Assembly: GCA_015484595.1 (NCBI GenBank)
Contig: WFMM01000008.1
Coordinates: 288 to 64,287, forward strand
Direction: 5' to 3'
Source of the DNA: Nitrospirota bacterium
GTDB taxonomy: Bacteria; Nitrospirota; Thermodesulfovibrionia; Thermodesulfovibrionales; JdFR-85
Length of the DNA stretch: 64,000 bases
The notes under the pieces are model-generated. The model did not search any database. It worked only from the letters and a program-made list of their open reading frames with translations, and was not told the DNA's origin. Positions 24,813-42,985 of the stretch are shown here, one piece after another (the stretch's first letter is position 1; each line of letters begins with the position of its first letter). A program made the position numbers and the translations under genes.

Positions 24813-24833
24813 CTTGGTCCTCCTTGAAGATTT

Positions 24834-24894: not shown

Positions 24895-24901
24895 TTAAAT
24901 T

Positions 24902-25135: not shown

Positions 25136-25165
25136 ATTTAACCTCCTCGATTTTAAAATATTTAG

Positions 25166-25243: not shown

Positions 25244-25247
25244 TAGT

Positions 25248-26204: not shown

Positions 26205-26298
26205 ATCATCCTTTTAATTGTGTTCTTTTAAATTATCTATATTACTATATAGTAATAGAGTAGTGTTTGTCAAGAATGATGTTACCTTACGAAGATGT

Positions 26299-26634: not shown

Positions 26635-26723
26635 AAAGCCTCCTCAAACAAGACTTACCCCTCTACCAGTTAATTTATTTGGTACACAACAGGTGTTTTT
26701 ATATTATAATATTTAATGTAAAA

Positions 26724-28433
26724 ATGACCAATAATTCATTAAAGAAGAGATTAATACTCGTTACCGCCCTTGTCATTTCTTTGCTATTAATTAGCAAGCT
26801 TACTCTCCATTCTGCCCAGAGACCAGTCCGCATAGGTATAGCCTCCATGATTACACCTGTTGATGCGGTGAAATACTACCAGGAGATTGTTGATTATGTG
26901 GGTGAAAGGCTTGGTATGCCTGTTGAAATGGTATTAAGAAGGACCTATGATGAGATGGATAAGTTACTTGAGAAGGGAAAGGTGGACATTGCCTTTATCT
27001 GCTCTGCACCCTATGTTAAAAACCGCAGGGAGTTCGGCGTTGAACTCCTGGTGGCTCCCGAGGTAAAGGGCAGAGCCTTTTACAAGTCTTACATCATCGT
27101 TCATAAAGACAGCCCCTTTAAAAGGTTTGAAGACCTTAAGGGACATACCTTTGCATTTACTGATCCCAAGTCAAACTCGGGCAGGCTCTATCCTGTATAC
27201 AGGCTTGCTCAAAAGGGGCTGAGACCAGAAGATTTCTTCAAAAAATACATCTACAGTTACAGTCATAACAAATCGGTTGAACTGGTTGCAAAGAGGATAG
27301 TTGACGGTGCTGCAGTTGAAAGCCTGGTTTATGAATATATGAAAAAACAGGGAAACCCCTATGTGCAGGAGACAAGAATCATAGAGAAATCCCCTGATTT
27401 TGGTATTCCCCCAGTGGTTGTATCAACAGGTGTATCCCTTTTTGTGAAGGAAAAGATAAAGGAGATACTTCTTAACATGCACAGGACAGCAGAGGGTAAG
27501 AGGATACTTTCTGCAATGAACATAGACAGGTTTGTTGAGGTTCCTGACTCTAATTATGACTCCATAAGGGAGATGGAAAGGGTAGTTAGCAAATTACGCC
27601 CACCTTCAAAAGAACAAAAAAAGGATGACTCCATCATATACTTTGGTGTAATCCCGAGGGATAACCCCCGTATAACCTACGAGAAGTATCAACCTCTGAT
27701 AGATTACCTGACCGAGACCACAGGGCACCGTTTTGAACTGAAACTTAAAAAGAGTTATGAGGAAACAGTGGTCTCTCTTGGTAATGGTGAGACAGATGTG
27801 GCAATACTTGACCCCCTTACATATCTTGAAGCGCATGCCAGATATGGGGCAGTCTGTATATTAAAGTCTGTAAACTCCAAGGGCGAACCCTTTTACTATT
27901 CCATGATTATCACAAAAAAAGACAGGCCTTTAAAGTCCCTCTCAGAGCTTAAGGGTAAGAGCTTTGCCTTTTCAGCTATTAAATCGACCGCTGGAAACCT
28001 GATACCCCGATATCTGCTTGCCGAGGCAGGCATACATCTTGGAGACCTGGGGATGTATAAAAACTTCTATTATTATGAAACAGTTGTAAAGAGGGTTTTA
28101 AGTGGCGAGTTTGATGCAGGCGCTGTAAGGGATGCAGTTGCCAACAAATACATGCCCCTTGGGATAAAGGTGATTGCCCGGTCTGAGCCTATTCCTACTG
28201 GCCCTGTGGTAATAGGCCCGAGAACATCCTTTGTTACAGGCGAGATGATAAAGTCAGCCTTGATCAATATAAACAAGACCAAAAGGGGGCAGCAGGTTCT
28301 TAAAAAACTTGACCCTGAATTCTGGGGTGGTTTTGTTGAGGCAAGGGATTCAGATTATCAGGGGATAAGGGATATGATTAACAATGTGCCAAAGACCTGC
28401 GGGATGGGATGTCATCCAAAGATAAAACTATAG
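26724..28433 (+). CDS. Secreted protein with two tandem PhnD-type (phosphonate/oxyanion) substrate-binding domains
   Basis: The track ORF is trimmed to ATG 26724 (MTNNSLKKRLILVTALVISLLLISK signal/anchor). Two homologous halves each carry F(A)FTDPKSNSGRLYP / FAFSAIKSTAGNLIPRY motifs. The C-terminus reads TCGMGCHPKIKL. Confidence 0.75.
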   Translation: MTNNSLKKRLILVTALVISLLLISKLTLHSAQRPVRIGIASMITPVDAVKYYQEIVDYVGERLGMPVEMVLRRTYDEMDKLLEKGKVDIAFICSAPYVKNRREFGVELLVAPEVKGRAFYKSYIIVHKDSPFKRFEDLKGHTFAFTDPKSNSGRLYPVYRLAQKGLRPEDFFKKYIYSYSHNKSVELVAKRIVDGAAVESLVYEYMKKQGNPYVQETRIIEKSPDFGIPPVVVSTGVSLFVKEKIKEILLNMHRTAEGKRILSAMNIDRFVEVPDSNYDSIREMERVVSKLRPPSKEQKKDDSIIYFGVIPRDNPRITYEKYQPLIDYLTETTGHRFELKLKKSYEETVVSLGNGETDVAILDPLTYLEAHARYGAVCILKSVNSKGEPFYYSMIITKKDRPLKSLSELKGKSFAFSAIKSTAGNLIPRYLLAEAGIHLGDLGMYKNFYYYETVVKRVLSGEFDAGAVRDAVANKYMPLGIKVIARSEPIPTGPVVIGPRTSFVTGEMIKSALININKTKRGQQVLKKLDPEFWGGFVEARDSDYQGIRDMINNVPKTCGMGCHPKIKL

Positions 28434-29890
28434 TTACGGGCTTTTTAAGCAGAATACCACTACAGCAGAAGTTTATCCTTATCACTTCAGTAGCCATTGT
28501 GGTGCTGATGAGTATTATAGGATACCTTGTGACCATGAGGGAGCGTCAGATAATGTATGCAGACATTGAGCGGCAAGGCAGGGTGTTTGCCGAGACCCTT
28601 GCAATACCTGTAATCAACGACCTTATTTACGAACGGATGGGGCTTGTGGAGGAGGGTGGCCTTATTGACAACTACATTCGGGGCATATTCAATAAAAAGG
28701 AGTTGAACCTTCTTTATCTTGCAGTGCTTGACGAAGATGGAAGGGTCATCTCTCATAATGACTTTAGAGAATACGGAAAGGTTTATACTGACCCCCTGAC
28801 CAGACATGCCCTCAGGGCAAACACCACGGTGGTGCAGAAGTTTCACAGCAGCAAGACAGGCCACGATGCCCTTGATTTTGCCACTCCTTTATCAATCGGG
28901 AAAAAACGATGGGGAACCCTCAAGTTTGCTATCTCCCTTGAAGAGGTGGAGCATGAGATTTCAAATATGGTAAAAGGAATACTGTTCTTCACACTTGTGG
29001 TCCTTGTCGTGGGATTTTTTATAATCATAATTCTCAGTAGAAGGTTTATAAGACCCATAACCTATCTTGCCCGAACCATGGAGCGTGCTGGCTCAGGTGA
29101 CCTTGATGTGAAGGTTCACATAAAGGGTAATGACGAGCTTGCCCTTTTAGGACAGAGTTTTAACAACATGATAGAGCGGATAAAGCAGGCAAACCTTGAA
29201 CTAAAAAGGACACATGAAAAGCTACTTCAATCAGAAAAACTGGCATCCATTGGTATCCTCGCCTCTGGCGTTGCCCACGAGATTAACAACCCCCTTGGCG
29301 GAATGTTCAACTGTGTGGATATGCTTGAACTGATGGGTGAAAATGAGGAATTAAGACAGAAGTATCTCCACCTTCTTAAAGATGGGTTAAACAGGATTGA
29401 ATCAATCGTGGGGAAACTCCTCTGGATGTCAAGAACGGGAAGCCGTAATCCAGAGGTGGTCGATGTAAAAGCCCTGCTTCAGGACATCTATAAGTTCGTT
29501 GAGTACAGGTTAAGAAATAAAGACATAAGATACAGCGTAGATATAGAAGATGGCCTGACCATAATAATAGACCCCCACGATTTTCAACAGATTATGCTTA
29601 ATCTTATAATCAATGCAATCCATGCCATCAACAATACGGGAGAGCTTACGATAAAGGGCTACAGCGAGGACGATTACAAGATTATCACTGTTACGGACAC
29701 TGGAGAGGGAATTGACAGGGAGAATCTTCCTAAGATATTTGACCCCTTCTTTACCACAAAGCAGCCTGGTGAGGGCACAGGACTTGGACTCTGGTTGACT
29801 TACGAGATTGTTAAAAACTATAATGGCGAAATCACTGTAGAAAGCCAAAAGGGAGTTGGAACCACCTTTACGCTTAAGTTTAAGAGGTGA
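28409..29890 (+). CDS. Sensor histidine kinase (periplasmic Cache-like domain, HAMP, HisKA, HATPase)
   Basis: 493 aa. TM1, a roughly 150-aa extracytoplasmic domain, TM2, HAMP, H-box VAHEINNPL, GTGLGLWL. Overlaps the binding-protein gene by 25 nt. Confidence 0.88.
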   Translation: MSSKDKTIVTGFLSRIPLQQKFILITSVAIVVLMSIIGYLVTMRERQIMYADIERQGRVFAETLAIPVINDLIYERMGLVEEGGLIDNYIRGIFNKKELNLLYLAVLDEDGRVISHNDFREYGKVYTDPLTRHALRANTTVVQKFHSSKTGHDALDFATPLSIGKKRWGTLKFAISLEEVEHEISNMVKGILFFTLVVLVVGFFIIIILSRRFIRPITYLARTMERAGSGDLDVKVHIKGNDELALLGQSFNNMIERIKQANLELKRTHEKLLQSEKLASIGILASGVAHEINNPLGGMFNCVDMLELMGENEELRQKYLHLLKDGLNRIESIVGKLLWMSRTGSRNPEVVDVKALLQDIYKFVEYRLRNKDIRYSVDIEDGLTIIIDPHDFQQIMLNLIINAIHAINNTGELTIKGYSEDDYKIITVTDTGEGIDRENLPKIFDPFFTTKQPGEGTGLGLWLTYEIVKNYNGEITVESQKGVGTTFTLKFKR

Positions 29891-31245
29891 TGATGGATAA
29901 AAAGTCAGTTCTCATAATTGAAGATGAAAGGATAATGCGCATAACCATCGAGGATGCCCTTAAGGCTAAGGGTTATGAGGTAAAATCCTTTGAAAGGGCA
30001 TCGGATGGGCTGAAGGCATACAGCGAAGAGCCATTTGATATCGTGCTTACCGATGTAAGACTGCCTGACATAAACGGTATGGAGGTGCTAAGGAGGATTA
30101 AGGAGATAGATGATTCCTCTATGGTTATCATAATGACCGCCTTTGGCACCATAAAGGATGCGGTTGAGGCAATGAAGATGGGGGCCTTTGACTACATAAC
30201 CAAGCCATTCAGCCTTGATGAACTCTCATTGATTATCAGCAGAGCGGCAGAGGTAAAAAAGATGCAGGATGAAAACCTGAGACTTAAAAAGGCCATCTCC
30301 CGTTGCTATTGTTACCCAAACATTATTGGCGAAAGCGATGCAATGAAGAATGTATTCAGGATGATAGAGAGGCTTTCGCAATCGGACTCAACGGTTTTAA
30401 TACTTGGTGAAAGCGGAACTGGAAAGGAGCTGATAGCATCCACGATACATTATCAGGGAAAGAGGAAGGATGCACCCTTTGTGATTGTAAACTGCGGGGC
30501 ATTGCCAGAAAACCTTATCGAAAGCGAGCTCTTTGGTTACGAAAAGGGGGCCTTTACAGGTGCCACCCGCCGAAAACCCGGCCGTTTTGAGCTTGCAGAC
30601 GGCGGAACCATCTTTCTTGACGAGGTCGGGGAATTGCCCCCATCAGTGCAGGTCAAGCTCTTGAGGGTGCTTCAGGATGGAACCTTTGAACGACTTGGTG
30701 GAACAGAGACCATAAAGGTGGATGTAAGGGTAATTGCTGCAACCAATCGAGACCTTGAAAGGGAGGTAAGGGAGGGAAACTTCAGAGAAGACCTCTACTA
30801 CCGTCTTGCCGTAATACCCCTGACACTTCCACCACTCAGGGAAAGACGAGAGGACATCCCTCTTTTGATTGAGCACTTTCTTCAGCGTTGTAACAGCCGC
30901 CTTGGTAAACAGATTGTCTTTTCAAAGGATGCAGTGGAGGCACTCATGGAGTATCCTTTCCCTGGAAATGTCAGAGAGCTTGAAAACATCGTTGAGCGTA
31001 TGGTGACCCTCTGTGAATCAGACAGGGTAAAACGGGAAGACCTCCCTCAGCATGTGCTTAAAAAGGGACAGAAAAAAGACACTCCTGCCCAGCCACTTAC
31101 AAAGGTGGCTCAGGAAGCTGAAAAACAATACATTATCAGGGTTCTTAAACAGACAGGTGGTAACCGAAGCCGTGCTGCCTCAGTGCTTGGCATTAGCCGC
31201 AAAACCCTCTGGGAAAAGATGAGACAGTACGGCATAAATAACTGA
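29887..31245 (+). CDS. Sigma-54-dependent response regulator (NtrC/Fis family)
   Basis: 452 aa. Receiver domain, AAA+ domain with GESGTGKE and GAFTGA, C-terminal Fis HTH. Confidence 0.92.
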
Positions 31246-31329
31246 ATGAAGAAACCTGCGGCCTTACTGTCATTAAAGGCTCCTCAGACTCTCATACCAC
31301 CACATCTCCGAGGCAGTTAAGTACAGGAT

Positions 31330-31448
31330 GATGGACATGGGATGTTATAGGGATATCATAAGTGGTTTAGGCACATGGCGGGAAGGTGGAGGTTAACAGT
31401 GTCCCTGGTGAGGGAAGTGTATTTACTGTTTATCTGCCGGGCGGGTAA
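31330..31448 (+). pseudogene. Remnant of a histidine kinase C-terminus (HATPase tail)
   Basis: GCA 31371 to TAA 31448 reads AHGGKVEVNSVPGEGSVFTVYLPGG-stop, a typical kinase C-terminus. Upstream, DMGCYRDIISGLG resembles the G2 box but sits in another frame with stops. Confidence 0.65.
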
Positions 31449-31511
31449 TCGCCTGATTTTTTATCCTGAAAGTTAGATTTGATATATGAATGATATATTT
31501 TCTGGAGGCAA

Positions 31512-31821
31512 ATGATGGAAACGCAGATGCTTATTCGTCTGAATAAAGAGACAAAATACCGGCTTAGCAGACTGGCAAGGGAAGCGGGTAAAAAGGATTA
31601 TAGACCTGTGGAAGGAAGGCACTGTAACACTCTGTATTTCCAGAGGCATACTTGATGAATATATTGATGTCCTAAGCAGGTTGGGTATGGAGGGTGAGGA
31701 GGAATTAGAGGTGATTATAACAGGGGACAGACACCTTTTATCTGTAGAGAGTTTCGGCGGAGTAGATATATTGACTCCAAGGCAGTTTCTTGAAAGGATA
31801 CGAGACCTCTTAGATGGCTGA
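31512..31821 (+). pseudogene. Decayed toxin-antitoxin locus: RHH-like antitoxin start joined out of frame to the C-terminal half of a PIN-family toxin
   Basis: Frame 1: MMETQMLIRLNKETKYRLSRLAREAGK, then nonsense and a stop at 31649. Another frame: RIIDLWKEGTVTLCISRGILDEYIDVLSRL...VIITGDRHLLSVESFGGVDILTPRQFLERI-stop, which is the tail of a TIGR00305-type PIN protein. The N-terminal PIN acidic residues are missing. Confidence 0.6.
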
Positions 31822-33202
31822 GAGGATACTTCATACCGTAACACTCCTTGGTCACTGGGGATACCTGATAATCTTCCTTGCGGCCTTCCTTGAGAGTTCT
31901 GCCTTCATGGGACTTCTGGTGCCGGGTGAGTCGGTGGTGGTGCTTTCGGGTTTTCTTGCCTCAAAGGCCGTCCTTGACATCGGCGACTGTATATGGATTA
32001 TCGCCCTTGGTGCCGTGCTTGGCGACTCGGTGGGCTACAGCCTTGGCAAGGCCCTCGGAAGGGGATATTTCCAGAGGCACAGCCGTCTCCTTCTTCTTAA
32101 AGAAAAGCACATCCACAGGGTAGAAGAATACTTTGAGCACCACGGTGGAAAGACCATATTCTTTGGCCGGTTTATCGGTCTTTTAAGGGCAATGGCTCCC
32201 TTTGTGGCAGGTATGTCTCGGATGCCCTATGGTAGGTTTTTTATTTACAATGCCTCTGGTGGCATCCTCTGGGCAGTGGCATTTACACTTCTTGGGTATT
32301 TCTTTGGCCAGAGCTGGCAGTTGATTGAGAGGTGGGCTGGAAGGGCAGGTGTATTTGCAGTCTTTGTCCTTCTGGTGATAGGTGGGTTTGGGTATATCTA
32401 CCGTAAGGCAGCAGGAAAGAGGGAGGAGATCTACCGTTGGTTTCAGGAAAGGGCAGAGAAGGTCTCACAGAGCAGGAGACTTTCAGAGTTTGTGCAGTCT
32501 CATCCCCGTATGGTCTCATTCATAAAGGAGAGGCTTTCACCCCGCAGTTATCTTGGGCTTCACCTGACTGTAGGGCTTCTCGTGAGTGTCCTTTTTGTAT
32601 GGCTCTTTGGAGGCATCACCGAGGACATCCTCACAGGAGACCCCTTTGTGCAGGTTGACCGGTGGGTGGTCTCACAGGTCTTATACTTCAGGGCAGGCCC
32701 TGTTACAGCCTTTATGAAGGCCATAACCCACCTTGGCGGAGGGGTAACCATTGCAGGGGGAAGCCTTATACTCATCGTCCTATTTCTTCTTTTTAAGAGA
32801 TGGGACTATGCAGTGGGGCAAACAGTGGCGGTTATGGGAGGAAGCATCCTTGTGTTTGTGTTAAAGGCGGCGGTGCACAGGCCAAGGCCCATAACAGAGA
32901 CCACCCTGGTTCGGGCATGGGGATGGAGTTTCCCCAGCGGACATGCTATGATGTCAGTGATCTTCTATGGGATGCTCTCATACTATCTTGTCCGTGCCTT
33001 AAGGCAGTGGAGGTTTCAGGTCCTGACGGTTACTGCCTCGGGTTTTCTGGTATTTCTGATCGGCCTTAGCAGGATTTATCTTCAGGTTCACTACCTTAGT
33101 GATGTTATAGGGGGCTTTGCAGGCGGGATGTTCTGGCTCAGTGTCTGCATCACAGGGCTTGAGGTTTACAGAAGACGGAAAAGAAGGATTACAAACCTGT
33201 AA
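31814..33202 (+). CDS. DedA-family membrane protein fused to a PAP2 lipid phosphatase domain
   Basis: 462 aa. The N-terminal roughly 200 aa are DedA/SNARE-associated (GYLIIFLAAFLESSAFMGLLVPGE). The C-terminal PAP2 domain has all three motifs: KAAVHRPRP, PSGH, SRIYLQVHYLSD. Confidence 0.85.
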   Translation: MAERILHTVTLLGHWGYLIIFLAAFLESSAFMGLLVPGESVVVLSGFLASKAVLDIGDCIWIIALGAVLGDSVGYSLGKALGRGYFQRHSRLLLLKEKHIHRVEEYFEHHGGKTIFFGRFIGLLRAMAPFVAGMSRMPYGRFFIYNASGGILWAVAFTLLGYFFGQSWQLIERWAGRAGVFAVFVLLVIGGFGYIYRKAAGKREEIYRWFQERAEKVSQSRRLSEFVQSHPRMVSFIKERLSPRSYLGLHLTVGLLVSVLFVWLFGGITEDILTGDPFVQVDRWVVSQVLYFRAGPVTAFMKAITHLGGGVTIAGGSLILIVLFLLFKRWDYAVGQTVAVMGGSILVFVLKAAVHRPRPITETTLVRAWGWSFPSGHAMMSVIFYGMLSYYLVRALRQWRFQVLTVTASGFLVFLIGLSRIYLQVHYLSDVIGGFAGGMFWLSVCITGLEVYRRRKRRITNL

Positions 33203-33250
33203 TCTTCAGGTAATCCTCCGATAATCTTTCCTTCCTATAATAGGCATACC

Positions 33251-34639
33251 ATGTTCAGTTACAGAGTGTCATTACTCCTGATATGCCTTGTGGCGGTCTC
33301 CCTCCTTCAGAGCTGTGCCACCTATCAGGCAAAGACACTAAGAAGGGCCGATATTGAGGCATCACTCAGGCCGCCTGATAACCAGACCATCCTGGTTAAG
33401 GCCGAAAGGATAAGGCATCCCATTTTAAGGCCCATCAGGATTGACCTCAAAGACGGGCTTGGCCCTGATGAGGCAGCAGTGGTGGCGGTCATTGTAAACC
33501 CTGCACTCAGGGCAGAGAGAGACAGGGCCGGTATTGCCCGTGCACAACTCATTCAGGCAGGTCTTCTGCCCAACCCTCAACTTTCCCTCAGCATGGATAT
33601 CCCATCTGGTGGTGATACAACGGACACGGTTACAGGATACGGCCTCGGGCTCGGCATTGACCTGAGGTCCCTTATCACAAGAGGTGCAAGGCGTAAGGCG
33701 GCAGAGAAAGAACTCTCCTCTGTCAACCTTGAGGTGGCCTGGAAGGAGTGGCAGGTTGCAGAGGCAGCAAAGATGCACCTGTATCACATCTATTACCTGA
33801 ACCGCCTTCGTGACCTTGCTAAAAGGGCACTAAGCCTTGCAGACGAAAACTTAAATGCCATGAAAGAGGCAGTCCTGGCAGGTGAAAGGATATCTGCTGA
33901 CCTGAGCGATATGGAGGTAAGGGTAAAAGATGCCGTGACCACCCTTACTGACATAGAGATGAAGACGAAAAAGGAAACCCTGCTTCTTAAAAGAGCCATG
34001 GGATTTCCACCTGATAGGGTTATTCCTCTACAGAAGAAGATTAAAAACCCCTTCCTCTGCAGAACTCCCGAACCGGAAGAACTTCTTAACTCCCTCTATA
34101 GCAGACCTGATATCCTTGCACTCAGGGAGGCTTACAGTGCAGAGGATGCCAGACTGAGGGAGGCCATCCTCTCACGGTTTCCTGACATAGGCATTGGGAT
34201 TGGTTATTCACGGGGAACAGACGGCCTTATCACCATCGGGCTATCTATCAGCATAGAACTGCCCCTTTTTGACCATGCCCAGGGTAGGGTCGCCCTGAGA
34301 AAGGCCACCATGAAGGAGGTCTTTGACAGGTATGTAGCAAGGGTATTTGAGGCACGCTCGGAGGTGATGGAACTTATCTCTGATATGGGTTTTATAAAGA
34401 GAAAACTCCATACCCTACGGAACCTGATTAATTACCTGAAAGGCCAGTGCCAGACATACGGGGAGTTATTGAAGGTGGGGATGACAGATAAACTCCATTA
34501 CTACGATGTCTGTAGCAGATTGATTTCTGAAGAGATAAAGGAGATAAAACTCAAAGAGTTGCTTACAGATATGGGGATTGGTATTGAGACCGCCTCTGGC
34601 AGGTATTTTCAGACAGAGGGCTGCACTTTTGATAAATAA
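33251..34639 (+). CDS. TolC-family outer membrane efflux lipoprotein
   Basis: 462 aa. Lipobox LLQSC, and the two-repeat OEP architecture typical of RND-associated outer membrane factors. Confidence 0.82.
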   Translation: MFSYRVSLLLICLVAVSLLQSCATYQAKTLRRADIEASLRPPDNQTILVKAERIRHPILRPIRIDLKDGLGPDEAAVVAVIVNPALRAERDRAGIARAQLIQAGLLPNPQLSLSMDIPSGGDTTDTVTGYGLGLGIDLRSLITRGARRKAAEKELSSVNLEVAWKEWQVAEAAKMHLYHIYYLNRLRDLAKRALSLADENLNAMKEAVLAGERISADLSDMEVRVKDAVTTLTDIEMKTKKETLLLKRAMGFPPDRVIPLQKKIKNPFLCRTPEPEELLNSLYSRPDILALREAYSAEDARLREAILSRFPDIGIGIGYSRGTDGLITIGLSISIELPLFDHAQGRVALRKATMKEVFDRYVARVFEARSEVMELISDMGFIKRKLHTLRNLINYLKGQCQTYGELLKVGMTDKLHYYDVCSRLISEEIKEIKLKELLTDMGIGIETASGRYFQTEGCTFDK

Positions 34640-34655
34640 ACACGGAGGCAAAGGC

Positions 34656-35751
34656 ATGAGAAACCCTGTAATGGCTTTCAGTATATTTATTGCCCTTCTG
34701 ATTACAATCATCGGGGGAGGATACCCCCTTTCGGCGCATGGTGAGGCTCTGGCAAGAGGGAAAGATACTCTTCAGGGATTCAGGATTAAGACATCCCGGC
34801 CCTCAAAGAGGCCATTCCGTGTCACAATCAATTTCTACGGAGGTGTTGTTAGCCAGCATAAGGTGGCACTCAGGGCACCAATTTCAGGCAGGATTATGAA
34901 GATCAGGGCCGCAGATGAGGCTGAGGTAAAAAAGGGAGACATCCTCTTTGTCATGGGTGGGCCTGAGGTTGAGAGAAAGATACAGGCCCTTAACTCGCAG
35001 GCATCCCATCTCAGGGGACTTTTATCAGAACTCAGGGGCGTGCTTAAGAGGAAGGAGAGTGCCCTTTAAGAGAAAACTCATCTCCATAGATGAACTTGAG
35101 GCAGTGAAACTTCAACTCATTAAGACAGAGAATGCCTACAACGAGAGCCTTCTTAAACTTCATCAACTTGAGGATTCCCTGAAACTCAGGGCACCACTTG
35201 AAGGTAGGTTCACGAGAAGGACAGTTTTTGAGGGCCAGGATGTGGACAGGGGCGAGGTCATTGGCTATATCGTTGATACCCGTCATCTCAGGGTGGTTGG
35301 GACGGCCTTTCCCCGGCATGAATATACAGAAATTAAAGGGAAAAAGGCGGTTATATACACCGGGGATGGTCTTTCTGTCCATGGCACTGTCAAAAATGTC
35401 CTGACTGAAAGGGCACCTTCAGGGGGTGTAAGGGTATGGATTGAGTCAGGGGATATAGACAGGGCACTCAGGGTCGGCGAGTCTGTCCGTGGCATCATAG
35501 TATTGAGGACAGACCGGAATGCCCTTTCAGTGCCTGAAAGGGCGGTGGTCTATGATGAGCATGGAAGGCCCCTTGTATTTATCAGGACAAAGGATAACCA
35601 GTATGTAAGATGGCCCATCCGTGTAGGGGTTTTATCAGGTGGGTCGGTTGAGGGCATCTCAGGCATCTCAGAGGCAGATGAGGTGGTAATAGAGGGTGCC
35701 TATGAACTCTTTTACAGGGATTTCAACCGCACCTTCAGGGTGGCAGACTGA
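34656..35751 (+). pseudogene. RND membrane fusion protein (HlyD family) interrupted by a +1 frame change at 35064-35069
   Basis: Two overlapping track ORFs (34578-35069 and 34948-35751) together make one MFP. The lipoyl half is in frame A (LRAPISGRIMKIRAADEAEVKKGDILF). The hairpin, second lipoyl half, beta-barrel and MP domain are in frame A+1 (LISIDELEAV..LRAPLEGRF..). Confidence 0.8.
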
Positions 35752-37228
35752 TGAGGACCATACTTAAAAGACTCACTGACAATCCCCTTATGATGGTATT
35801 TGCCGTGGTGGTTATCGCATTTAGCGGCATATTTGCAGCCACCCACATGCCTGTTGACCTCTTTCCCAACCTTGATATCCCTGTGGTCAATATCATCACC
35901 CACTACCCCGGGGCATCCCCTGAGGAGATGGAACTCCTGATAAGCAGGCCCGTGGAGGATGTCATGAGGGGGCTTCAGGGGGTAAAGCGTGTCTCATCCA
36001 CATCAGCACTCGGGGTCTCGGAGGTTACGGTGGAGTTTACATGGGGCACTACTGTGAGGGATGCAAGGCAGTTGGTTCAGGCAGGTCTTTCCAGGCTGAA
36101 TGGACTCCTGCCACAGGGGGTTGTCCCAAGGATGGAAAACATCGGCACCACCCTGCAGGAGGTAACAGGCTATGTGGTGGTGTTACCATCTATGGCACGG
36201 ATACTGAGCGCCTCATATCCCTTGCAGACAGGGTTGAGGGGTTAATGTCCAGAGAGCCTTCCTTATCAAACATCGTTAATAATACAAAGATAAAGGCAGG
36301 GGAGGTGGTGGTGAGGCTTAGATATCCCGACCTTGCCCGTTATGGGGTAAGCACAGAGGAGGTCTTTGATACCCTTGAGTCTGCATTTACCGGTCTTGAG
36401 GCCACGGGGATAATAAGACAGCAGGAGACGGTGGGCATTGTGGTGAAACTCAGGGGGATTGACACTCACAGGCCAGAGGATATCCGCAGGATCCCCATCA
36501 ATACAGCCACAGGGGAGGTAATACCCCTTGACAGGGTGGCCGATGTCAACCTGATACACACACCTTCAACCATCACAAGGCTCAACGGTCAGAGGGAGAT
36601 AACCCTTGTGGCAGAGGTGGAGGGCTCAATCCCCCGTGTGGTTTCAAGGTTGAGGGAGAAGTTCAGCCAGTTGAAAATCCCTGAGGGCTACTCCATTGAG
36701 TTTACAGGCCAGTTCAGGGTGCTCACAAGGACACTCTATGAACTAGTAATGGTGGTTGTGGCTGCTGTGGTTCTTATCTACCTCATAATGGCGATGCAGT
36801 TTCGCTCATTTCTCCAGCCCCTGATGATACTGACAACCATCCCACTGTCACTCGTTGGTGCGGCAGTCGGGCTTTTTATTACACATAAAGGCCCTGATGT
36901 ATCTGTTGGTATGGGCATTATCACACTTGTGGGTATTGCCGTAAACAATGCCATTATACTCGTGGATTATGCAAACAGTGAGATAAGGCGAGGAAGCCGC
37001 CCCGAGGAAGCACTCATTAAGGCATCCTCTGTGAGGCTAAGGCCCATACTGATGACAGCACTTACCACCATCTTTGCACTCATACCCATAGCCATAGGCA
37101 CAACCACTGGGTCCAATATCTTTCAGTCCTTTGCGATTACCGTAATTGGCGGGCTCCTGACCGGCACCCTCTCCACCCTCCTTGTGGTGCCTGTTTTGAT
37201 AAGTATCCTGAATAATGACAAAAACTGA
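35751..37228 (+). pseudogene. RND efflux pump (AcrB/CzcA superfamily) with a large internal deletion and a frame change
   Basis: ORF 35751-36245 gives TM1 and the first roughly 140 aa of an RND pump. ORF 36041-37228 gives the last roughly 350 aa (second periplasmic loop end and TM8-12). The total of about 490 codons compares with about 1,000-1,050 for the family. The frames differ at about 36171-36195. Confidence 0.8.
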
Positions 37229-37520
37229 AGAAACCTGCTTAACAGGGCCTCGGTATAATGCCACCTGCCGCAAGACAAGAGATGTCCGGAGGCAGAAATG
37301 AAAGTGAAGCTCCCCGGCCAAAGGTCGGGGCTTCCAATGCAAGGAAAATGAAAATTTTTATTATTATTCTTGCCTTCATCCCCGACTGTCGGGGTCCCCA
37401 AAAAGTCATAAACTTTTTGGGGTGGAGGTGTCGGGGCTTTCGGCAAGGGTCATTGTAACCGCTTTCCGTTAGTTAGAGATTTCCAGAGGACAGCCTGATT
37501 GCTCGCTGCACAATCAAACC

Positions 37521-37538
37521 TGTTACCCTTCCGTAACA
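37521..37538 (+). promoter_or_regulatory. Candidate enhancer (UAS) site 1: TGTTAC-N6-GTAACA
   Basis: Perfect 6+6 inverted repeat tgttac ccttcc gtaaca, about 210 bp upstream of the predicted sigma-54 transcription start. Confidence 0.5.
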
Positions 37539-37647
37539 ACCGATAAAATACCATCGGTTTCCTTTAATTTTTCCAGATCATCTTCCTTAACATACTGATT
37601 TTTAAGCTTATTTTGTATTTTAAAGCACTTTTTATGTCTTTAATAAA

Positions 37648-37665
37648 TGTTACTTTATCGTAACA
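37648..37665 (+). promoter_or_regulatory. Candidate enhancer (UAS) site 2: TGTTAC-N6-GTAACA
   Basis: Perfect 6+6 inverted repeat tgttac tttatc gtaaca. It is 127 bp centre-to-centre from site 1 and about 85 bp upstream of the predicted start. I found no other copy of this palindrome in the window. Confidence 0.5.
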
Positions 37666-37715
37666 GCAAGAGGTTGGGTCTTCAGAAATTCCTTTAAATT
37701 TCAATAACTTTTTCC

Positions 37716-37731
37716 TGGCACATCAATTGCT
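37716..37731 (+). promoter_or_regulatory. Sigma-54 (RpoN) -24/-12 promoter
   Basis: cTGGCACatcaaTTGCTt matches the TGGCAC-N5-TTGCW consensus exactly. It is on the plus strand, about 250 bp upstream of the Fe-S subunit start codon. Confidence 0.75.
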
Positions 37732-37778
37732 TAAATAAATTGCCAAAAGAAAACAACAGAGTAATCAATCAAATTACA

Positions 37779-37850
37779 GGGGAGTTTGAGGTGGCAGGGC
37801 TCCTCAAAGGGGCTCCGCCCCTTTGTAACCCCAATAAGGATTTTAATATA
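37779..37850. repeat. Repeat family R2, single inverted unit with linker
   Basis: ggggagtttgaggtggcagggctcctcaaaggggctccgcccctttgtaacccc aataaggattttaatat is the reverse complement of the R2 unit and linker. It lies inside the predicted 5' UTR of the Mo-enzyme operon. Confidence 0.8.
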
Positions 37851-37983
37851 AGTAAATTAATAAAAATCATTGAGTTAGAGCCTGTAGAACATGCTCTAAC
37901 AGAAAGGGAGGTGGGAGAAAGGGGGATTGAGTTATCCCTGCCAGCAGTAACATTATAATTACTTTTTAAGAAAGGAGGAGTGT

Positions 37984-38760
37984 ATGGCTGTAAACGAGAT
38001 CGTGAGAATGTATGAAGACCTCAATCGGGCTTTAAAGAAACCGGTTGAGAAGAGGTCATGGGTTATGGTCATTGATGTTAGGCGTTGTGTTGGTGACCAT
38101 GCCTGCGCCGTAAGTTGTATGGCAGAAAATGTCTGCCCACCTGGGACATCCTACCGCTGGGTTTTTGAAACCGAATATCAGAATTATCCAAAACTTGACA
38201 GGTTTTTTATGCCTGCTAACTGCCAGCACTGTGACAACCCACCCTGTCTTAAGGCTGCAAACAGACACAAAAGGGGTGCAATCACAAAAAGGCCTGACGG
38301 AATCGTGGTCTTTGACTATGAAAAACTCTCTCGTAGTTCTTCAGCCATGGATGCTGCAAAGAAGGCATGCCCCTACTATGCAATAGTTGATGACAGGGGC
38401 GACTACTATACAGAAAACACCCCAAAGCTCGAGCCCTATGAGACCAGGACATTCTTTGAATATGACAGAAAACTAAACAGAAAAAAGACAAAGGGAACTA
38501 TCCGTAAATGCCACTTCTGCCTTCACAGGCTTGAAAGCGGGATGATACCTGCCTGTGTGTCCACCTGTATCGGAAGGGCCATGTACTTTGGTGACCTTAA
38601 TGATCCCAGGTCACTGGTGTCTGAACTTATCAGGAAGGAAAAGACGCTCAGGCTGAAAGAGGCAGAGGGAACAAAACCGAGGGTTTACTACATTGGTTTT
38701 AAGGACAGGGCAAACATATCAATTAGCACACCGGCTACATGCCAGGTATGCCATCAATAA
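37984..38760 (+). CDS. Fe-S (ferredoxin-type) electron-transfer subunit of a molybdopterin oxidoreductase; variant of the DmsB/PsrB/TtrB family
   Basis: 258 aa. Cys groups CVGDHACAVSC, CQHCDNPPC, ..ACPYYA, CHFC...PACVSTC, then MYFGDLNDP. Ends in CQVCHQ. RBS AAGGAGG. Confidence 0.85.
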   Translation: MAVNEIVRMYEDLNRALKKPVEKRSWVMVIDVRRCVGDHACAVSCMAENVCPPGTSYRWVFETEYQNYPKLDRFFMPANCQHCDNPPCLKAANRHKRGAITKRPDGIVVFDYEKLSRSSSAMDAAKKACPYYAIVDDRGDYYTENTPKLEPYETRTFFEYDRKLNRKKTKGTIRKCHFCLHRLESGMIPACVSTCIGRAMYFGDLNDPRSLVSELIRKEKTLRLKEAEGTKPRVYYIGFKDRANISISTPATCQVCHQ

Positions 38761-38773
38761 ATAGGAGGTGTGT

Positions 38774-41700
38774 ATGGCTGAAAAGGACAAATCCTGTAAG
38801 ATTTCCGAGATGCTTGAATCAATACCTCAAAAAGAGGTCACCAGAAGGGGGCTTCTGAAGGCAGGTGCACTGCTTGGAAGTTCTGCCTTCCTGATGGGAA
38901 AGGTGGAGAAGGCCTTTGGACTGCTTGCCTCTGCTGAGGCTGCAACAGGTGGTGACTATCCACTTGCAAAGGCAGAAAATGTTATCTATTCTGTCTGCCT
39001 GCAGTGCCATACAGCCTGCCCTATAAAGGTGAAAATACTGGATGGCGTTGCAGTAAAGATAGACGGCAATCCCTACTCTGCCCAGAACATGATACCCAAC
39101 CTCAAGCAGAAGACCTCTCCCCATGTGGCAGCAAAGATTGATGCAAAGATCTGTCCCAAGGGGCAAGCTGGAGTTCAGAGCCTTTATGACCCCTACAGGA
39201 TAGTGAAGGTTCTTAAGAGGAAGGGCCCCAGGGGCTCAAACAAGTGGGAGGTCATCTCCTTTGACCAGGCAATTGATGAGATTGTAAACGGTGGTTATCT
39301 ATTTAAACACATCGGAGAAAACCGTTATGTGCCAGGACTCAAGGATATCTATGCCCTTCGTGACCCCAAGCTCTCAAAGGCCATGGCAAAGGATGCAAAG
39401 GCAGTGGCAAAGGGCAAGATGTCGGTAAGTGACTTTAAGAAGAAGTACAAAAACCACCTTGATGTGCTCATAGACCCCAACCACCCCGACCTTGGGCCAA
39501 AGAACAACCAGTTTGTGCTTCAGTTTGGCCGAATTGAGCACGGCAGAAAGGAGCTATGGAAGAGGTTTCTTGCAGGTGGCTTTGGCTCTGTGAATTACTA
39601 CGAACATACAACCATCTGTGAGCAGTCCCACCACATTGCCTACAAGGAGGCAACCCGTCAGCCCAAGGGTGGTAAGTGGGGAAAACCAAAATCAGAGCAC
39701 ATGAAACCAGATGCACTTAACGCCGAGTTTGCCATCTATTTCGGAACAGGTTTTGTTGAAGCAAACTTTGGCCCACCAAACATGGCTGAGAAGGTTACAG
39801 AGGGACTCCAGACAGGAAGGCTCAAGGTATGTGTTGTAGACCCCAGGATGTCCAAGTCTGCTGCAAAGGCATGGAAGTGGTTGCCTGTAAAGCCAGGCAC
39901 TGACGCTGCACTGATAATGGGAATGATAAGGTGGATAATTGAAAACAAACGGTATGATGAAAGATTCCTCTCAGCAGCAAACAAGGCTGCAGCAAAGGCT
40001 GCCGGTGAGTCATCCTGGACCAATGCAGCTCATCTTGTAAAGATTGAAAAGGATGGCCCTGGAGCACTGCTGAGGGCAAAGGACATCGGAATGGGTGGAG
40101 ATGAGTTTGTGGTGGTCAAAAACGGAGAGCCTGTGGTTGTTGGAAAGGATGCAGTTACAGGCGACCTTGACTACTCTGGCACCATAAAGGGCATCAGGGT
40201 TAAAACAGCCTTCAGGATACTGAAGGACGAGGCATTCTCAAAGAGCCTCTCCGAGTGGTCAGAGATATGCGGCATACCTGAAAACGACATCATAGATGTG
40301 GCAAGGGAGTTTACCGCTCATGGTAAGAAGGCTGCTGCAGATATGTATCGTGGAGCAGTTCAGCACACAAATGGCTACTATAATGGTCAGGCCGTTATTG
40401 CCCTTAACCTGCTTATTGGAAGCATTGACCACAAGGGTGGCCTCAGTAAGGGTGGTGGTCACTGGCATGAAGACGGTGGAAAACTGAAGAAACCCTTTTA
40501 CCTCAAGAAACTACACCCGAACAAGCTCCATGCCTTCGGGCACAAGCTCACAAGGGAGAAATCAAGATACGAGGACTCCACACTGTTTAAGAGAGATGGT
40601 GGCTATCCTGCAAGACGGCCATGGTTCCCATTTACTGGTAATGTATATCAGGAGATCCTGCCCTCTGCTGCCGATGGATACCCCTATCCAATCAAGGCAC
40701 TCTGGATACACAAAGGCACCCCTGCCCTTTCCATACCTGCTGCCAATGAGCAGGCAAGGATACTGGCAGACCCAAATATCATACCCCTTGTGTTTGCAAC
40801 AGACATAGTGATTGGCGATACCACCATGTATGCTGATTATATCTTCCCCGATACGGCGATATGGGAGCGCTGGGGAACTCCTCATACCAGCCCTGATGTG
40901 TTACAGGTCTCATCAAAGTTCCGCCAGCCCACCATAACGCCACTTACAGAGGTGGTGGAGGTGTTTGGTGAGAAACAGCACTGCTCGATGGAGGCAGTGA
41001 TGTTTGCCATTGCCGAGCGGCTCAAACTTCCTGGTTTTGGTAAAAATGGATTCGGAAACGGATACGACCTTACCCGTCCTGAAGACTGGTACCTCAAACT
41101 GGCAGCCAATCTTGCCTGGGGCGACAAGCCTGGTCAGGAAGTGCCTGATGCCTCAAGGGATGAGATAAAACTCTTCATGAGGGCTCGAAGGCACATGGCA
41201 AAGACCGTGTTTGACCCTGAAAGGTGGGAAAGGGCTGCTGGAAAGGAGAACTGGCGGAAGGTGATTTATCTTCTTAACCGTGGTGGAAGATGGGAAGACT
41301 GGAAGGATGACTTCCTTGGCTCAGGCATGCAGGTGCACAGATTTGGTAAACAGTTTAACATCTATGCAGAGCATGTGGCACTTCAGAGACACTCACTTAC
41401 AGGAAAGCGTTTCTCAGGCATAGCTATTTACGAGCCTCCAAAGGATGCAGCAGGAAGGGTGATTGACGACAGTGGATACCCGCTTCAGCTCATCACATAC
41501 AAGGACATCCTTGGTGGACAGTCAAGGACACTACCAACAGACTACTGGCTCAGTTCAATACTGCCAGAAAACTACATACTGATCAACACAGAGACTGCTG
41601 CAAAACTTGGATTCAAGGACGGAGACAAAGCAAAGATAATATCTGCTTCCTGTAGAGACGGGAAATGGCATCTTCCCAATCGTGGAACTAAGGGCGTAAT

Positions 41701-41956
41701 CGGAAAGATAAAGACAGTGGAAGGTATGAGACCAGGTGTTGTGGCGGTTTCATGGCATTACGGTCACTGGGGCTATGGTGCCTCTGATACTGTGATTGAT
41801 GGTAAGGTGATAAAGGGCGATCCAAGAAGGGCAACAGGCCTCTGCCCTAATGCAGTATTGAGGGTAGACCCTGCACTTGGAAATGCCTGTATGACAGACC
41901 CCATTGGTGGCTCTTCATCTTTCTATGATACAAAGGTGAAACTGCTCAAGGCATAA
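38774..41956 (+). CDS. Tat-exported molybdopterin (bis-PGD) oxidoreductase catalytic subunit of about 1,060 aa, Ttr/Psr/Arr-like, substrate unknown
   Basis: The track ORF starts at GTG 38768; ATG 38774 has better AGGAGG spacing. Twin-arginine signal VTRRGLLKAGALLGSSAFLMG, FS0 motif CLQCHTAC...CPKG, candidate Mo-ligand Cys in HTTICEQSHH. Continuous ORF with no in-frame TGA. Confidence 0.85.
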   Translation: MAEKDKSCKISEMLESIPQKEVTRRGLLKAGALLGSSAFLMGKVEKAFGLLASAEAATGGDYPLAKAENVIYSVCLQCHTACPIKVKILDGVAVKIDGNPYSAQNMIPNLKQKTSPHVAAKIDAKICPKGQAGVQSLYDPYRIVKVLKRKGPRGSNKWEVISFDQAIDEIVNGGYLFKHIGENRYVPGLKDIYALRDPKLSKAMAKDAKAVAKGKMSVSDFKKKYKNHLDVLIDPNHPDLGPKNNQFVLQFGRIEHGRKELWKRFLAGGFGSVNYYEHTTICEQSHHIAYKEATRQPKGGKWGKPKSEHMKPDALNAEFAIYFGTGFVEANFGPPNMAEKVTEGLQTGRLKVCVVDPRMSKSAAKAWKWLPVKPGTDAALIMGMIRWIIENKRYDERFLSAANKAAAKAAGESSWTNAAHLVKIEKDGPGALLRAKDIGMGGDEFVVVKNGEPVVVGKDAVTGDLDYSGTIKGIRVKTAFRILKDEAFSKSLSEWSEICGIPENDIIDVAREFTAHGKKAAADMYRGAVQHTNGYYNGQAVIALNLLIGSIDHKGGLSKGGGHWHEDGGKLKKPFYLKKLHPNKLHAFGHKLTREKSRYEDSTLFKRDGGYPARRPWFPFTGNVYQEILPSAADGYPYPIKALWIHKGTPALSIPAANEQARILADPNIIPLVFATDIVIGDTTMYADYIFPDTAIWERWGTPHTSPDVLQVSSKFRQPTITPLTEVVEVFGEKQHCSMEAVMFAIAERLKLPGFGKNGFGNGYDLTRPEDWYLKLAANLAWGDKPGQEVPDASRDEIKLFMRARRHMAKTVFDPERWERAAGKENWRKVIYLLNRGGRWEDWKDDFLGSGMQVHRFGKQFNIYAEHVALQRHSLTGKRFSGIAIYEPPKDAAGRVIDDSGYPLQLITYKDILGGQSRTLPTDYWLSSILPENYILINTETAAKLGFKDGDKAKIISASCRDGKWHLPNRGTKGVIGKIKTVEGMRPGVVAVSWHYGHWGYGASDTVIDGKVIKGDPRRATGLCPNAVLRVDPALGNACMTDPIGGSSSFYDTKVKLLKA

Positions 41957-41968
41957 AAAACACAATAA

Positions 41969-42008
41969 CAGAGAGAGGGTAATCCTTTGCCCTCTCTCTG
42001 TTAAATTT
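41969..42008 (+). terminator. Strong hairpin / intrinsic terminator after the Mo-enzyme gene
   Basis: cagagagaggg-taatcctttg-ccctctctctg (perfect 11-bp stem, 41969-41979 / 41990-42000), followed by ttaaattt. Confidence 0.6.
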
Positions 42009-42407
42009 ATGCAAACTTTGAAGGAGGACCTTAACATTAACATACTGGTTCTTGATGACGAGGCTTCAATTGTATCGACCCTTTTGCAATACCTTCATAA
42101 GAGAGGTTACGATATTGTTGGCACTACGAATCCTGATCTTGCTGAGTCCATAATACTTACAGGCTGTGTGGACTTCTTACTGCTTGATATAAACCTCGGG
42201 TGCACCACAGGCATTGAACTTTACAGAAGGGTAAAGGAAAAGGGCTTTAAAGGAAAGGTGCTTTTTATCACTGCCTATGACATAGGAGATTATCAGGAAG
42301 AACTGAATGCCATTGGGGTAAACCATGTCATTCAAAAACCCTTTCAATTATATACAGTGGTTGAAATGATACAGAAGATCGCCAGTAAGGAGGTTAAACA
42401 GGGTTAG
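42009..42407 (+). CDS. Stand-alone response-regulator receiver domain (CheY-like)
   Basis: 132 aa. ILVLDDE acidic pocket, phospho-acceptor in LLLDINL, conserved T (FITAY) and K (QKPF). The start is uncertain: ATG 42009 has no SD, and a strong AAGGAGG lies inside codons 5-7. Confidence 0.75.
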   Translation: MQTLKEDLNINILVLDDEASIVSTLLQYLHKRGYDIVGTTNPDLAESIILTGCVDFLLLDINLGCTTGIELYRRVKEKGFKGKVLFITAYDIGDYQEELNAIGVNHVIQKPFQLYTVVEMIQKIASKEVKQG

Positions 42408-42441
42408 CGGAGGGCATACTTTTTTCCGAAAGGTAAAAAAA

Positions 42442-42774
42442 ATGGAGACATCCGTTGCTTTTTCACAGAGGTTAAAGGAGACTAAAAAATTGAAGACAAC
42501 CCTCGTTGTTAACGAAACAGTTATACCCCTTAACGAGTTTGTACAGACCTATATTGGTAATGTATTAAGGGCCATGGTCTTGAGCCTCGGTTTTGAGGCA
42601 GAGAGGGTGCATCTCTTTATAGAATCAGGAGATATAAAGATATATGCTGATGATGAACCGGTCCCCCTGAGAAAGGACTTTGTAAAACTCCTTTTAGAAA
42701 GCACCATTAAGGGAGTGCTTTCGCCACTTAAAGGAATCTTCTGGCTTGAGAGAATAACCATAATGACCGAGTAA
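42442..42774 (+). CDS. Hypothetical 110-aa protein (no family recognised)
   Basis: An ORF with plausible codon usage and no TM or signal sequence. Follows the receiver gene after a 34-nt gap. Confidence 0.4.
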   Translation: METSVAFSQRLKETKKLKTTLVVNETVIPLNEFVQTYIGNVLRAMVLSLGFEAERVHLFIESGDIKIYADDEPVPLRKDFVKLLLESTIKGVLSPLKGIFWLERITIMTE

Positions 42775-42948
42775 AAATTTTTATACCGCTATGCATATTT
42801 GTCATAGCGATATATCTATAAAATATTAAGAAAAACCAAAGGATTTTACCGACTCAGGTCGGGAATAAATTTTACTGAAAATGTTAATAATTATGAGAAA
42901 TGAATATATAAATTTAAATAATAGAAATAATATAAATAATATTCATTG

Positions 42949-42979
42949 TTGACAAAGGAATTCTTATTGGTGTATAAAT
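42949..42979 (+). promoter_or_regulatory. Sigma-70-type promoter of the nuo operon (candidate)
   Basis: TTGACA (42949-42954), an 18-nt spacer, then tgTATAAAt (42971-42979). The nuoA ATG (42986) lies 7 nt after the -10 element and no SD is visible. Confidence 0.5.
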
Positions 42980-42985
42980 TAAGCC

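Follow-up and report, generated by a model that had tools for sequence, protein, structure and literature searches.

The 64-kb stretch of DNA analyzed here (the window) comes from an uncultured Nitrospirota lineage and carries, at positions 37521 to 37731, a probable control region for sigma-54-dependent transcription in front of an operon encoding an iron-sulfur (FeS) subunit and a molybdopterin-containing (Mo) catalytic subunit. The region comprises a −24/−12 element, TGGCACatcaaTTGCT (37716 to 37731, plus strand), with its GG doublet at 37717-18 and its GC doublet at 37729-30, and two palindromic sites upstream of it, the distal TGTTACccttccGTAACA (37521 to 37538) and the proximal TGTTACtttatcGTAACA (37648 to 37665), both of which are exact palindromes. 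Genes for a periplasmic binding protein, a sensor histidine kinase, and a sigma-54 activator, designated X, S, and R, are found between 26679 and 31245. Comparison with related loci and with characterized arsenic-responsive systems argues strongly that 37521 to 37731 is a functional sigma-54 promoter that depends on R.

A scan of the whole window on both strands for TGGCAC-N5-TTGCW without mismatches retrieved a single instance, TGGCACATCAATTGCT at 37716 to 37731 of the plus strand, which precedes the FeS gene on its coding strand and in which exactly 10 bp separate the GG doublet from the GC doublet. This element scored 17.2 bits out of a maximum possible 17.9 with a sigma-54 position weight matrix (PWM), and the second-best site over all window positions on both strands, which lies antisense within a nuo gene, scored 13.3 bits. 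A first-pass annotation of this DNA had described the element as exact, on the correct strand, and without a comparable match in the window, and the exact-match and PWM scans agree with this. Base-frequency arithmetic over the 128 kb scanned gives a chance expectation of about 0.24 exact matches, and a single one is by itself only mildly unusual. Transcription is predicted to start near 37742.

The palindrome TGTTAC-N6-GTAACA occurs in two exact copies, at the distal and the proximal site, and nowhere else in the window, where all near matches have two mismatches. With about 0.004 exact palindromes expected in 64 kb, a pair of copies spaced by 127 bp greatly exceeds what chance would produce. 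The distance between their centers corresponds to 12.1 helical turns. For a start near 37742, the distal center falls at about −213 and the proximal center at about −86, the latter being 61 bp upstream of the GG doublet. The positions of the two sites, their absence from the rest of the 64 kb, their spacing of about 12 turns, and their distances of about 85 and 210 bp from the start, all proposed in the first-pass annotation, were reproduced, as was its A+T-rich tract leading from the proximal site to the promoter. This spacer (37666 to 37715), called bendable, is 67% A+T, against 74% for the tract between the sites and a window mean of 53%.

As had also been proposed, the promoter precedes a molybdoenzyme operon. 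Its first gene (37984 to 38760, plus strand) encodes a TtrB/DsrO-like 4Fe-4S subunit of 258 amino acids (Pfam Fer4_11), which scores 136 bits with the NCBIfam DsrO model and 133 bits with the TtrB model, both under the cut-off. The FeS stop is 8 bp from the start of the second gene (38768 to 41956, plus strand), which encodes a molybdopterin catalytic subunit of the Ttr clade (1,062 amino acids) with a twin-arginine signal; the motif SRRGLLK is seen in the catalytic-subunit consensus. TtrA is the best NCBIfam model for this protein, at 514 bits versus an equivalog cut-off of 1750, while the ArrA model scores 130 bits and the arsenite oxidase large-subunit model 18 bits. Among solved structures, ArrA and polysulfide/thiosulfate reductase match best, though only locally. 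These scores point to a Ttr-clade enzyme that is not a tetrathionate reductase of the Salmonella type. No gene for an NrfD-type membrane subunit or a cytochrome was found in the operon (37984 to 42985); more distant homologues (related loci L028 and L042) encode an NrfD protein between their FeS and Mo subunits. A CheY-like receiver (42009 to 42407, plus strand), which also follows the Mo gene in L004, L006, and L007, and a small protein of 110 amino acids (42442 to 42774, plus strand), which follows it in L001, L003, L004, L006, and L007, are probable distal members. No terminator was detected before the nuo genes (nuoA to nuoG) next downstream, and the operon is taken to contain two genes, possibly four.

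Conservation of the sites among related loci

An alignment of the catalytic subunit, used as the search query, retrieved 80 genomic loci (numbered with the prefix L), and synteny was tested by tblastn with the window proteins. In about 25 of the 80, from Nitrospirota, Desulfobacterota, and other phyla, X, S, and R are directly upstream of the FeS-Mo pair, and about 19 related loci from Nitrospirota and Desulfobacterota have two or three palindrome copies ahead of both a sigma-54 element and this FeS/Mo pair. In the closest relative, L001, the Mo subunit is 92% identical to that of the window and 281 bp separate the end of R from the FeS gene. The X, S, R, FeS, and Mo genes of the window are all full length, with 83 to 94% identity to L001.

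The R gene ends 15 to 400 bp from the sites in relatives, with the R stop of L001 only 15 bp from the distal site. In the window, about 6.3 kb of inserted genes (31246 to 37520, from the R stop to the distal site) separate X, S, and R from the enzyme genes. This segment is absent in all relatives, and because these have R beside the sites, the gap is interpreted as a lineage-specific insertion. It holds a VTT-PAP2 fusion protein, an outer-membrane factor (OEP), split HlyD fragments, and an internally deleted AcrB whose pieces match model positions 7 to 144 and 671 to 1018 only, which together constitute a decaying RND efflux cluster. No terminal repeats were found at the edges of 31246 to 37520, and a shared sequence or target duplication there was rejected, with nothing beyond a 13-nucleotide (nt) chance match. 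Despite this rearrangement, both sites and the promoter are free of mismatches.

Within the gaps between R and the FeS gene, it is the palindrome half-sites that are conserved, and the 6-nt spacers vary freely and are unrelated. The alignment of the window with L001 around the sites is otherwise just 51% identical, and the distal site is conserved with a changed spacer in L001 and other loci. When palindromes with at most one mismatch were counted, 29 were found in 39.9 kb of DNA upstream of FeS genes versus 6 in the remaining 1,066 kb. Three of these six are about 1 kb upstream of an FeS gene, with sigma-54-like elements slightly downstream, and the other three are about 100 bp upstream of X; the unrelated background of the palindrome is effectively zero.

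In 13 of 18 loci, the 110 nt that follow the proximal palindrome contain a site scoring 12 bits or more with the PWM, a level reached by only 0.8% of random windows. The counterpart of the −24/−12 element is TGGCACagcgaTTGCT in L001 and TGGCATatcaaTTGCT in L003. A strict regular expression for the promoter missed most sites in the relatives; since −12 reads TTGT or GTGC in several of those from the Nitrospirota, recovering the sites required the PWM. The replacement of TTGC by TTGT was seen at L004 406, L007 8957, L012 225, L020 3975, and L005 58 (for example, TGGCACGAAAATTGTT), the window having a perfect TTGC. Loci that have no adjacent activator, among them the Chloroflexota and Bacteroidota ttrBCA-like loci, display neither the palindrome nor a sigma-54 element.

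The distances between the proximal center and the GG doublet fall at 30, 50 to 52, 61 to 64, 72 to 73, and 84 bp, in steps of one helical turn, and among the related loci this phasing of the proximal site gives a Rayleigh p of about 2e-5 at 10.5 to 10.7 bp. Both the window and L001 have a distance of 61 bp, within the phased cluster at 61 to 64 bp. The distance from the distal site to the GG doublet is looser, at 135 to 293 bp across loci. The motifs, their spacing, and the genes can be read directly from the sequence. Taken together, the comparison shows sites that are conserved, that keep a fixed helical face with respect to the promoter, and that are tied exclusively to R-type activators.

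The X-S-R regulators and assignment of the activator

X (26679 to 28433, plus strand; 584 amino acids, likely ATG start at 26725) is a periplasmic binding protein with two tandem PhnD-type domains (two Pfam Phosphonate-bd matches). Domain 1 belongs to the AioX/ArrX subfamily: for residues 49 to 300, ArrX is the best structural-database match (PDB, 1.5e-50), followed by AioX (6e-46), with PtxB (3.5e-20) and PhnD far worse. This domain keeps six of the seven residues of the AioX pocket (Y88, C106, Y131, S161, S163, and H192, with D210 replaced by E), including the arsenite-binding Cys106, and the AioX-type pocket is retained by most X proteins adjoining Ttr-like enzymes. Pocket conservation alone does not settle oxyanion selectivity, according to published work. 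X is a fusion of this AioX/ArrX-like domain to a PhnD/HtxB-like second domain in which the pocket is not kept, and Nitrospirota and Desulfobacterota relatives have kept this fusion. A single-domain X that resembles domain 2, with the pocket YGYSSHK, is present instead in Geothermobacter-type loci (L024, L031, L033, and L047).

S (28409 to 29890, plus strand) is a sensor histidine kinase (Pfam sCache, HAMP, HisKA, and HATPase) whose gene keeps its place alongside X and R in about 25 related loci. R (29887 to 31245, plus strand) is an NtrC/AtoC-family sigma-54 activator with REC, Sigma54_activat (2e-75), AAA_lid, and HTH_8 domains; GAFTGA is present in the alignment. A second sigma-54 activator with REC, Sigma54_activat, AAA_lid, and HTH_8 domains is encoded at 10833 to 12239 (minus strand). 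Domain searches confirmed both of these proteins as the sigma-54 activators that the first-pass annotation had listed.

The R proteins adjoining the palindrome all carry the C-terminal helix LGISRK[T/N]LWEK (17 of 17), and the R homologues at loci with a sigma-54 promoter but without the palindrome all carry other helices (10 of 10). The recognition region of the second activator, LNLTFRSFRHRLSKYG / LNLTFRSFRHRL, is unlike ISRK[T/N]LWEK. Because of this covariation with the helix, and because of synteny, the palindromes are assigned to R; the cognate activator is thus predicted to be the protein at 29887 to 31245 and not that at 10833 to 12239.

Relation to arsenic-responsive systems

The control region of the window appears to be of the AioXSR/ArxXSR-type sigma-54 design already known for arsenic enzymes, with R as the probable R component of such a module. 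The AioXSR/aioBA systems of Rhizobium sp. NT-26, Agrobacterium tumefaciens, and Herminiimonas arsenicoxydans have the same AioX-type protein, HAMP kinase, NtrC/AtoC activator, and TGGCAC-N5-TTGC promoter. Li et al. described two tandem palindromes and a −24/−12 box in 12 of 12 aioBA operons with aioXSR (PMC3834237). The AioR motif GT[TC][AC][CG]-N6-[GCT][GTA]AAC was predicted with MEME, and binding of AioR was established by electrophoretic mobility shift assay (EMSA) and DNase footprinting in A. tumefaciens GW4 (PMC5335332); the GTTAC-N6-GTAAC of the window fits this aioBA motif. A literature search for the literal motif did not find wording of the type GTTACN6GTAAC in the papers searched.

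In the gap between aioR and aioB of NT-26 and A. tumefaciens, GTTCG-N6-CGAAC is centered 61 and 62 bp from the GG doublet of TGGCAC-N5-TTGCA, against 61 bp in the window. R is 37% identical to NT-26 AioR, and the recognition helices are one residue apart (K versus T), that of AioR being LGISRTTLWEKM. Annotated AioR genes are among the best plasmid matches of the helix-turn-helix (HTH) segment of R. Metagenomic aioBA loci have a site identical to the TGTTAC-N6-GTAACA of the window, and their AioR carries ISRKTLWEK. Several differences are clear. The target in the window is a Ttr-clade 4Fe-4S/Mo enzyme and not the Rieske/Mo arsenite oxidase encoded by aioBA, X has a second fused binding domain that AioX does not have, and the sites are 127 bp apart, whereas those of the metagenomic aio loci are 23 to 35 bp apart. 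The half-site is GTTAC where alphaproteobacterial aio loci have GTTCG, the host belongs to the Nitrospirota, and R is encoded 6.3 kb from the promoter.

Badilla et al. (2018) defined the X-S-R family for Aio, Arx, and Arr (PMC5908839). In that account, the AtoC-type activator ArxR goes with a putative RpoN promoter and a site that contains gtaac, and some ArrR proteins are of a non-sigma-54 family (PMC5908839). ArxXSR and ArrXSR share with the window the X-S-R cassette beside an enzyme of the dimethyl sulfoxide reductase family. The catalytic subunit of the window differs from Arr in its scores (130 bits on ArrA, 514 on TtrA) and in its gene order, the FeS gene preceding the Mo gene.

Among Ttr-like systems, Melioribacter roseus has a Ttr-like enzyme with an upstream “ArrTSR” system (Gavrilov et al., 2017, PMC5492636), and its locus, like the window, places a Ttr-clade enzyme beside a phosphonate-binding-like protein, a kinase, and a response regulator. 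Melioribacteraceae homologues are 60 to 62% identical to the Mo subunit of the window. The M. roseus enzyme is presumably orthologous to it. Melioribacter-type loci have an NrfD-type subunit between the FeS and Mo genes, which the window lacks, and PMC5492636 describes no promoter or activator site for M. roseus. Among named models, the TtrA of Salmonella ttrBCA is the closest to the catalytic subunit and TtrB is a close match to the FeS subunit, and the periplasmic domain of Salmonella TtrS is also PhnD-like (weak hit). The window differs from the Salmonella Ttr system in its score (514 versus the 1750 cut-off), in having no TtrC, and in having a separate binding protein, a HAMP kinase, and a sigma-54 activator in place of TtrS and a LuxR-type TtrR.

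A protein-independent scan of metagenomes, for TGTTAC-N6-GTAACA and TGGCA-N6-TTGC separated by a gap of 35 to 65 nt, returned 57 stretches representing 45 distinct sequences, most of which have a second palindrome upstream. They include genuine aioBA operons with divergent aioXSR, where the AioR helix is ISRKTLWEK or ISRKSLWEK, and a contig of the window's own type (L120). One match precedes an ArrA/ArxA-clade gene (1100 bits, full length, with the ArrA model) followed by an FeS gene, and the same contig encodes an R that is 59% identical to that of the window. Other matches have X alongside and a multiheme cytochrome gene first; an FeS gene is visible downstream in two of them, and one such operon (L131) continues with a Psr/Phs-like Mo subunit. 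Although any gap in the range was allowed, the distances from the site to the GG doublet cluster at 48 to 55, 61 to 64, and 69 to 75 bp (p of about 4e-7).

Proposed mechanism, alternative explanations, and flanking features

In the proposed mechanism, periplasmic X would bind an oxyanion, most likely an arsenic oxyanion because the AioX/ArrX pocket is kept together with its arsenite-binding cysteine. By analogy with the family, X would signal to S, which would phosphorylate R (29887 to 31245). Dimers of R would then occupy both palindromes through the C-terminal helix ISRKTLWEK, as the covariation suggests, and R would assemble an active AAA+ ring. Bending of the A+T-rich spacer would bring this ring to the closed complex of the sigma-54 holoenzyme at TGGCAC-N5-TTGCT, and ATP hydrolysis would open the promoter for a start near 37742. 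We infer the inducing ligand, the start site, and the enzyme substrate from these comparisons, and whether the inducing signal is an arsenic oxyanion is an evenly balanced question.

NtrC at glnAp2 provides the general precedent, with tandem dyads about 100 to 200 bp upstream of a −24/−12 promoter, where the phosphorylated REC-AAA+-HTH activator oligomerizes and loops to the closed complex. The window differs from this system in the sequence of the sites, the signal, and the regulon, and its proximal site is closer to the start (about −86). The suggestion in the first-pass annotation that the palindromes form an enhancer-binding-protein site pair for a sigma-54 promoter is well supported by footprinting, helical phasing, helix covariation, and the match to the AioR system.

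Several observations weigh against this interpretation. The support for it is comparative rather than experimental, and the absolute bit values given above are rough, the PWM being an approximation of the published consensus. There is no rpoN gene within the 64-kb window, and the presence of sigma-54 is deduced solely from the two encoded activators. In the 50-bp spacer, the best match to the integration host factor (IHF) consensus has two mismatches, and no IHF site could be established. The location of R about 6.3 kb away and the repeat inserted in the leader could have altered expression. As for the arsenic connection, the target enzyme is neither Aio, Arx, nor Arr, and the metagenome scan found the same design upstream of GltD-like, pyrroloquinoline quinone (PQQ)-dehydrogenase, and PstS-like genes, beside other activators. 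These activators share the ISRKTLW core of the helix, which reads ISRKTLWKK beside the GltD-like gene and ISRKTLERR beside the PstS-like gene; the helix of the PQQ-dehydrogenase activator was not recovered. Since the palindrome design precedes such unrelated genes, the site marks a DNA-binding subfamily of activators and not arsenic regulation as such, and the X-S-R regulators form one branch of this wider subfamily.

The most serious alternative, to which we nonetheless give little credence, is that the motifs are an inactive relic, the operon having fallen silent or come under another promoter after the insertions of the 6.3-kb segment and the repeat. The region is indeed rearranged, the adjacent efflux genes are decaying, and a weak sigma-70-like match (9/12) is present at 37587 to 37614. 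The palindromes and the −24/−12 element have, however, kept zero mismatches while the surrounding DNA diverged from L001, and the five genes of the system are intact, with the identities to L001 given above. The search for an alternative sigma-70 promoter retrieved two weak matches, a count not above that in shuffled sequence. It is likewise very unlikely that a regulator of another kind, for instance the ArsR-like protein at 26299 to 26634 or one that represses the efflux genes, uses the palindromes as operators, with the sigma-54 element close by incidentally. Inverted repeats of the 6-N6-6 type are typical of dimeric repressors too, the decayed efflux cluster ends at 37228, and an ArsR-family gene is nearby, but the palindromes persist in relatives that have no efflux genes, hold a fixed helical phase to the −24 GG doublet, covary with the activator helix, and match a site at which AioR binding was established by EMSA and DNase footprinting.

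That the promoter is real but the palindromes are bound by the second activator (10833 to 12239, minus strand), or by one encoded elsewhere, would explain why R is not beside the promoter in this genome, and the second activator is a complete NtrC-type protein with HTH_8. We regard this as highly improbable: its helix is unlike the ISRK[T/N]LWEK found beside every palindrome, its identity to the syntenic R proteins is only about 43%, no FeS-Mo pair has it as a neighbor, and the relatives have R directly beside the palindromes. Chance matches in an A+T-rich intergenic region carry a practically negligible probability. The chance expectation for the −24/−12 element in the 128 kb scanned makes that single match not very improbable, but the two exact palindromes far exceed their expectation, and the conservation and phasing across phyla effectively refute this explanation.

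R-dependent sigma-54 control of the window operon would provide a testable assignment of activator, sites, and promoter in an uncultured Nitrospirota lineage and extend the AioXSR-type arsenic-sensing cassette to a Ttr-clade enzyme. What is new with respect to the known systems is the Ttr-clade target without a membrane subunit, the two-domain sensor, the Nitrospirota host, and the insertion that moved the regulator off its sites. In M. roseus, ttrA transcripts were up with arsenate, although induction was statistically clear only for psr/phsA (PMC5492636), and the same paper cites an arsenate-induced TtrA of Pyrobaculum aerophilum. By analogy with this arsenate-linked expression in M. roseus and P. 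aerophilum, an arsenic role for the Ttr-like enzyme is plausible. Non-Arr arsenate reductases have long been suspected from physiology, and the locus is a good candidate for one because the X pocket is kept and Ttr-like genes are reported to be arsenate induced.

A broader and more tentative proposal, which we hold to be possible but somewhat less than an even prospect, is that the Ttr-clade FeS/Mo enzyme, which in the window has no membrane subunit, represents an unrecognized respiratory or detoxifying family for oxyanions of arsenic or another metalloid, under a portable AioXSR-type cassette whose sensor has gained a second binding domain. The second domain of X might then integrate a further ligand such as phosphate, phosphite, or a thio-oxyanion. 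The combination of X-S-R, sigma-54, and TGTTAC-N6-GTAACA would be a cassette serving at least four molybdoenzyme clades (Aio, Arr/Arx, Ttr-like, and Psr/Phs-like) across phyla. The phased spacing classes, together with the K/T change in the helix that tracks GTTAC/GTTCG, offer clean natural material for studies of activator specificity and of enhancer geometry.

The leader between the predicted start and the FeS gene spans about 242 nt (37742 to 37983, plus strand) and contains the ribosome-binding site AAGGAGG at 37972 to 37978. Its conspicuous hairpin-rich segment (37763 to 37842, plus strand) is a copy of a dispersed intergenic repeat, GGGGAGTTTGAGGTGGCAGGGCTCCTCAAAGGGGCTCCGCCCCTTTGTAACCCC, of about 60 to 80 nt, whose copies are 80 to 88% identical; the others are at 5646 to 5700, 5718 to 5796, 18293 to 18358, and 18385 to 18446, all on the minus strand. 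The 5′ untranslated region of about 240 nt with a repeat unit that the first-pass annotation had predicted was therefore found much as described. The repeat is absent from the leaders of L003 and L001, the latter being 59 nt long. A candidate riboswitch or other known RNA in the leader was rejected, as an Rfam scan of 37000 to 38200 (E ≤ 1) returned two sub-threshold chance hits only. A purine-rich block, GGAGGTGGGAGAAAGGGG (37903 to 37925), about 60 to 80 nt upstream of the FeS start, is also seen in the leaders of L003, L004, L007, L012, and L020. No tatA-like gene is present in the window leader. A small tatA-like open reading frame (MFGLG...LFG..KLP.LG) separates the FeS gene from the sigma-54 promoter in L004 (about 440 to 620), L007 (about 8990 to 9170), and L008 (about 9000 to 9120), where it fits Tat export of the enzyme.

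Directly upstream of X, at 24210 to 26634 (minus strand), are genes for an ArsR/SmtB-family regulator, a SaoE-like permease, an ArsE-family thioredoxin-like protein, and a rhodanese; the ArsR-family gene, the permease, and the ArsE-family thioredoxin are weakly consistent with an arsenic role. The regulator and permease genes are separated by TATTAC-N6-GTAATA, a perfect A+T-rich palindrome at 26240 to 26257. It was considered as an X-S-R autoregulatory site and rejected, having two mismatches and lying between the ArsR-like gene and the permease gene of the opposite strand. Upstream of X, the window has no counterpart of the palindrome; among the loci, true palindromes in this position were found only in L043, L045, and L075. 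In these three Desulfobacterota loci, a one-mismatch palindrome, TGTTACAATTTCGAAACA, is located about 100 bp upstream of X (at 4211, 2582, and 4203, respectively), which suggests that X-S-R may be autoregulated there. Among the metagenome contigs, the palindrome and promoter design precedes genes for GltD-like Fer4_20/Pyr_redox_2, PQQ dehydrogenase, PstS-like, and cNMP-CBS-DUF294 proteins in L091, L115, and L128 (also L085/L136, L093, L111, and L125), and some such sites are 43 bp past an activator gene with the helix ISRKTLWKK.

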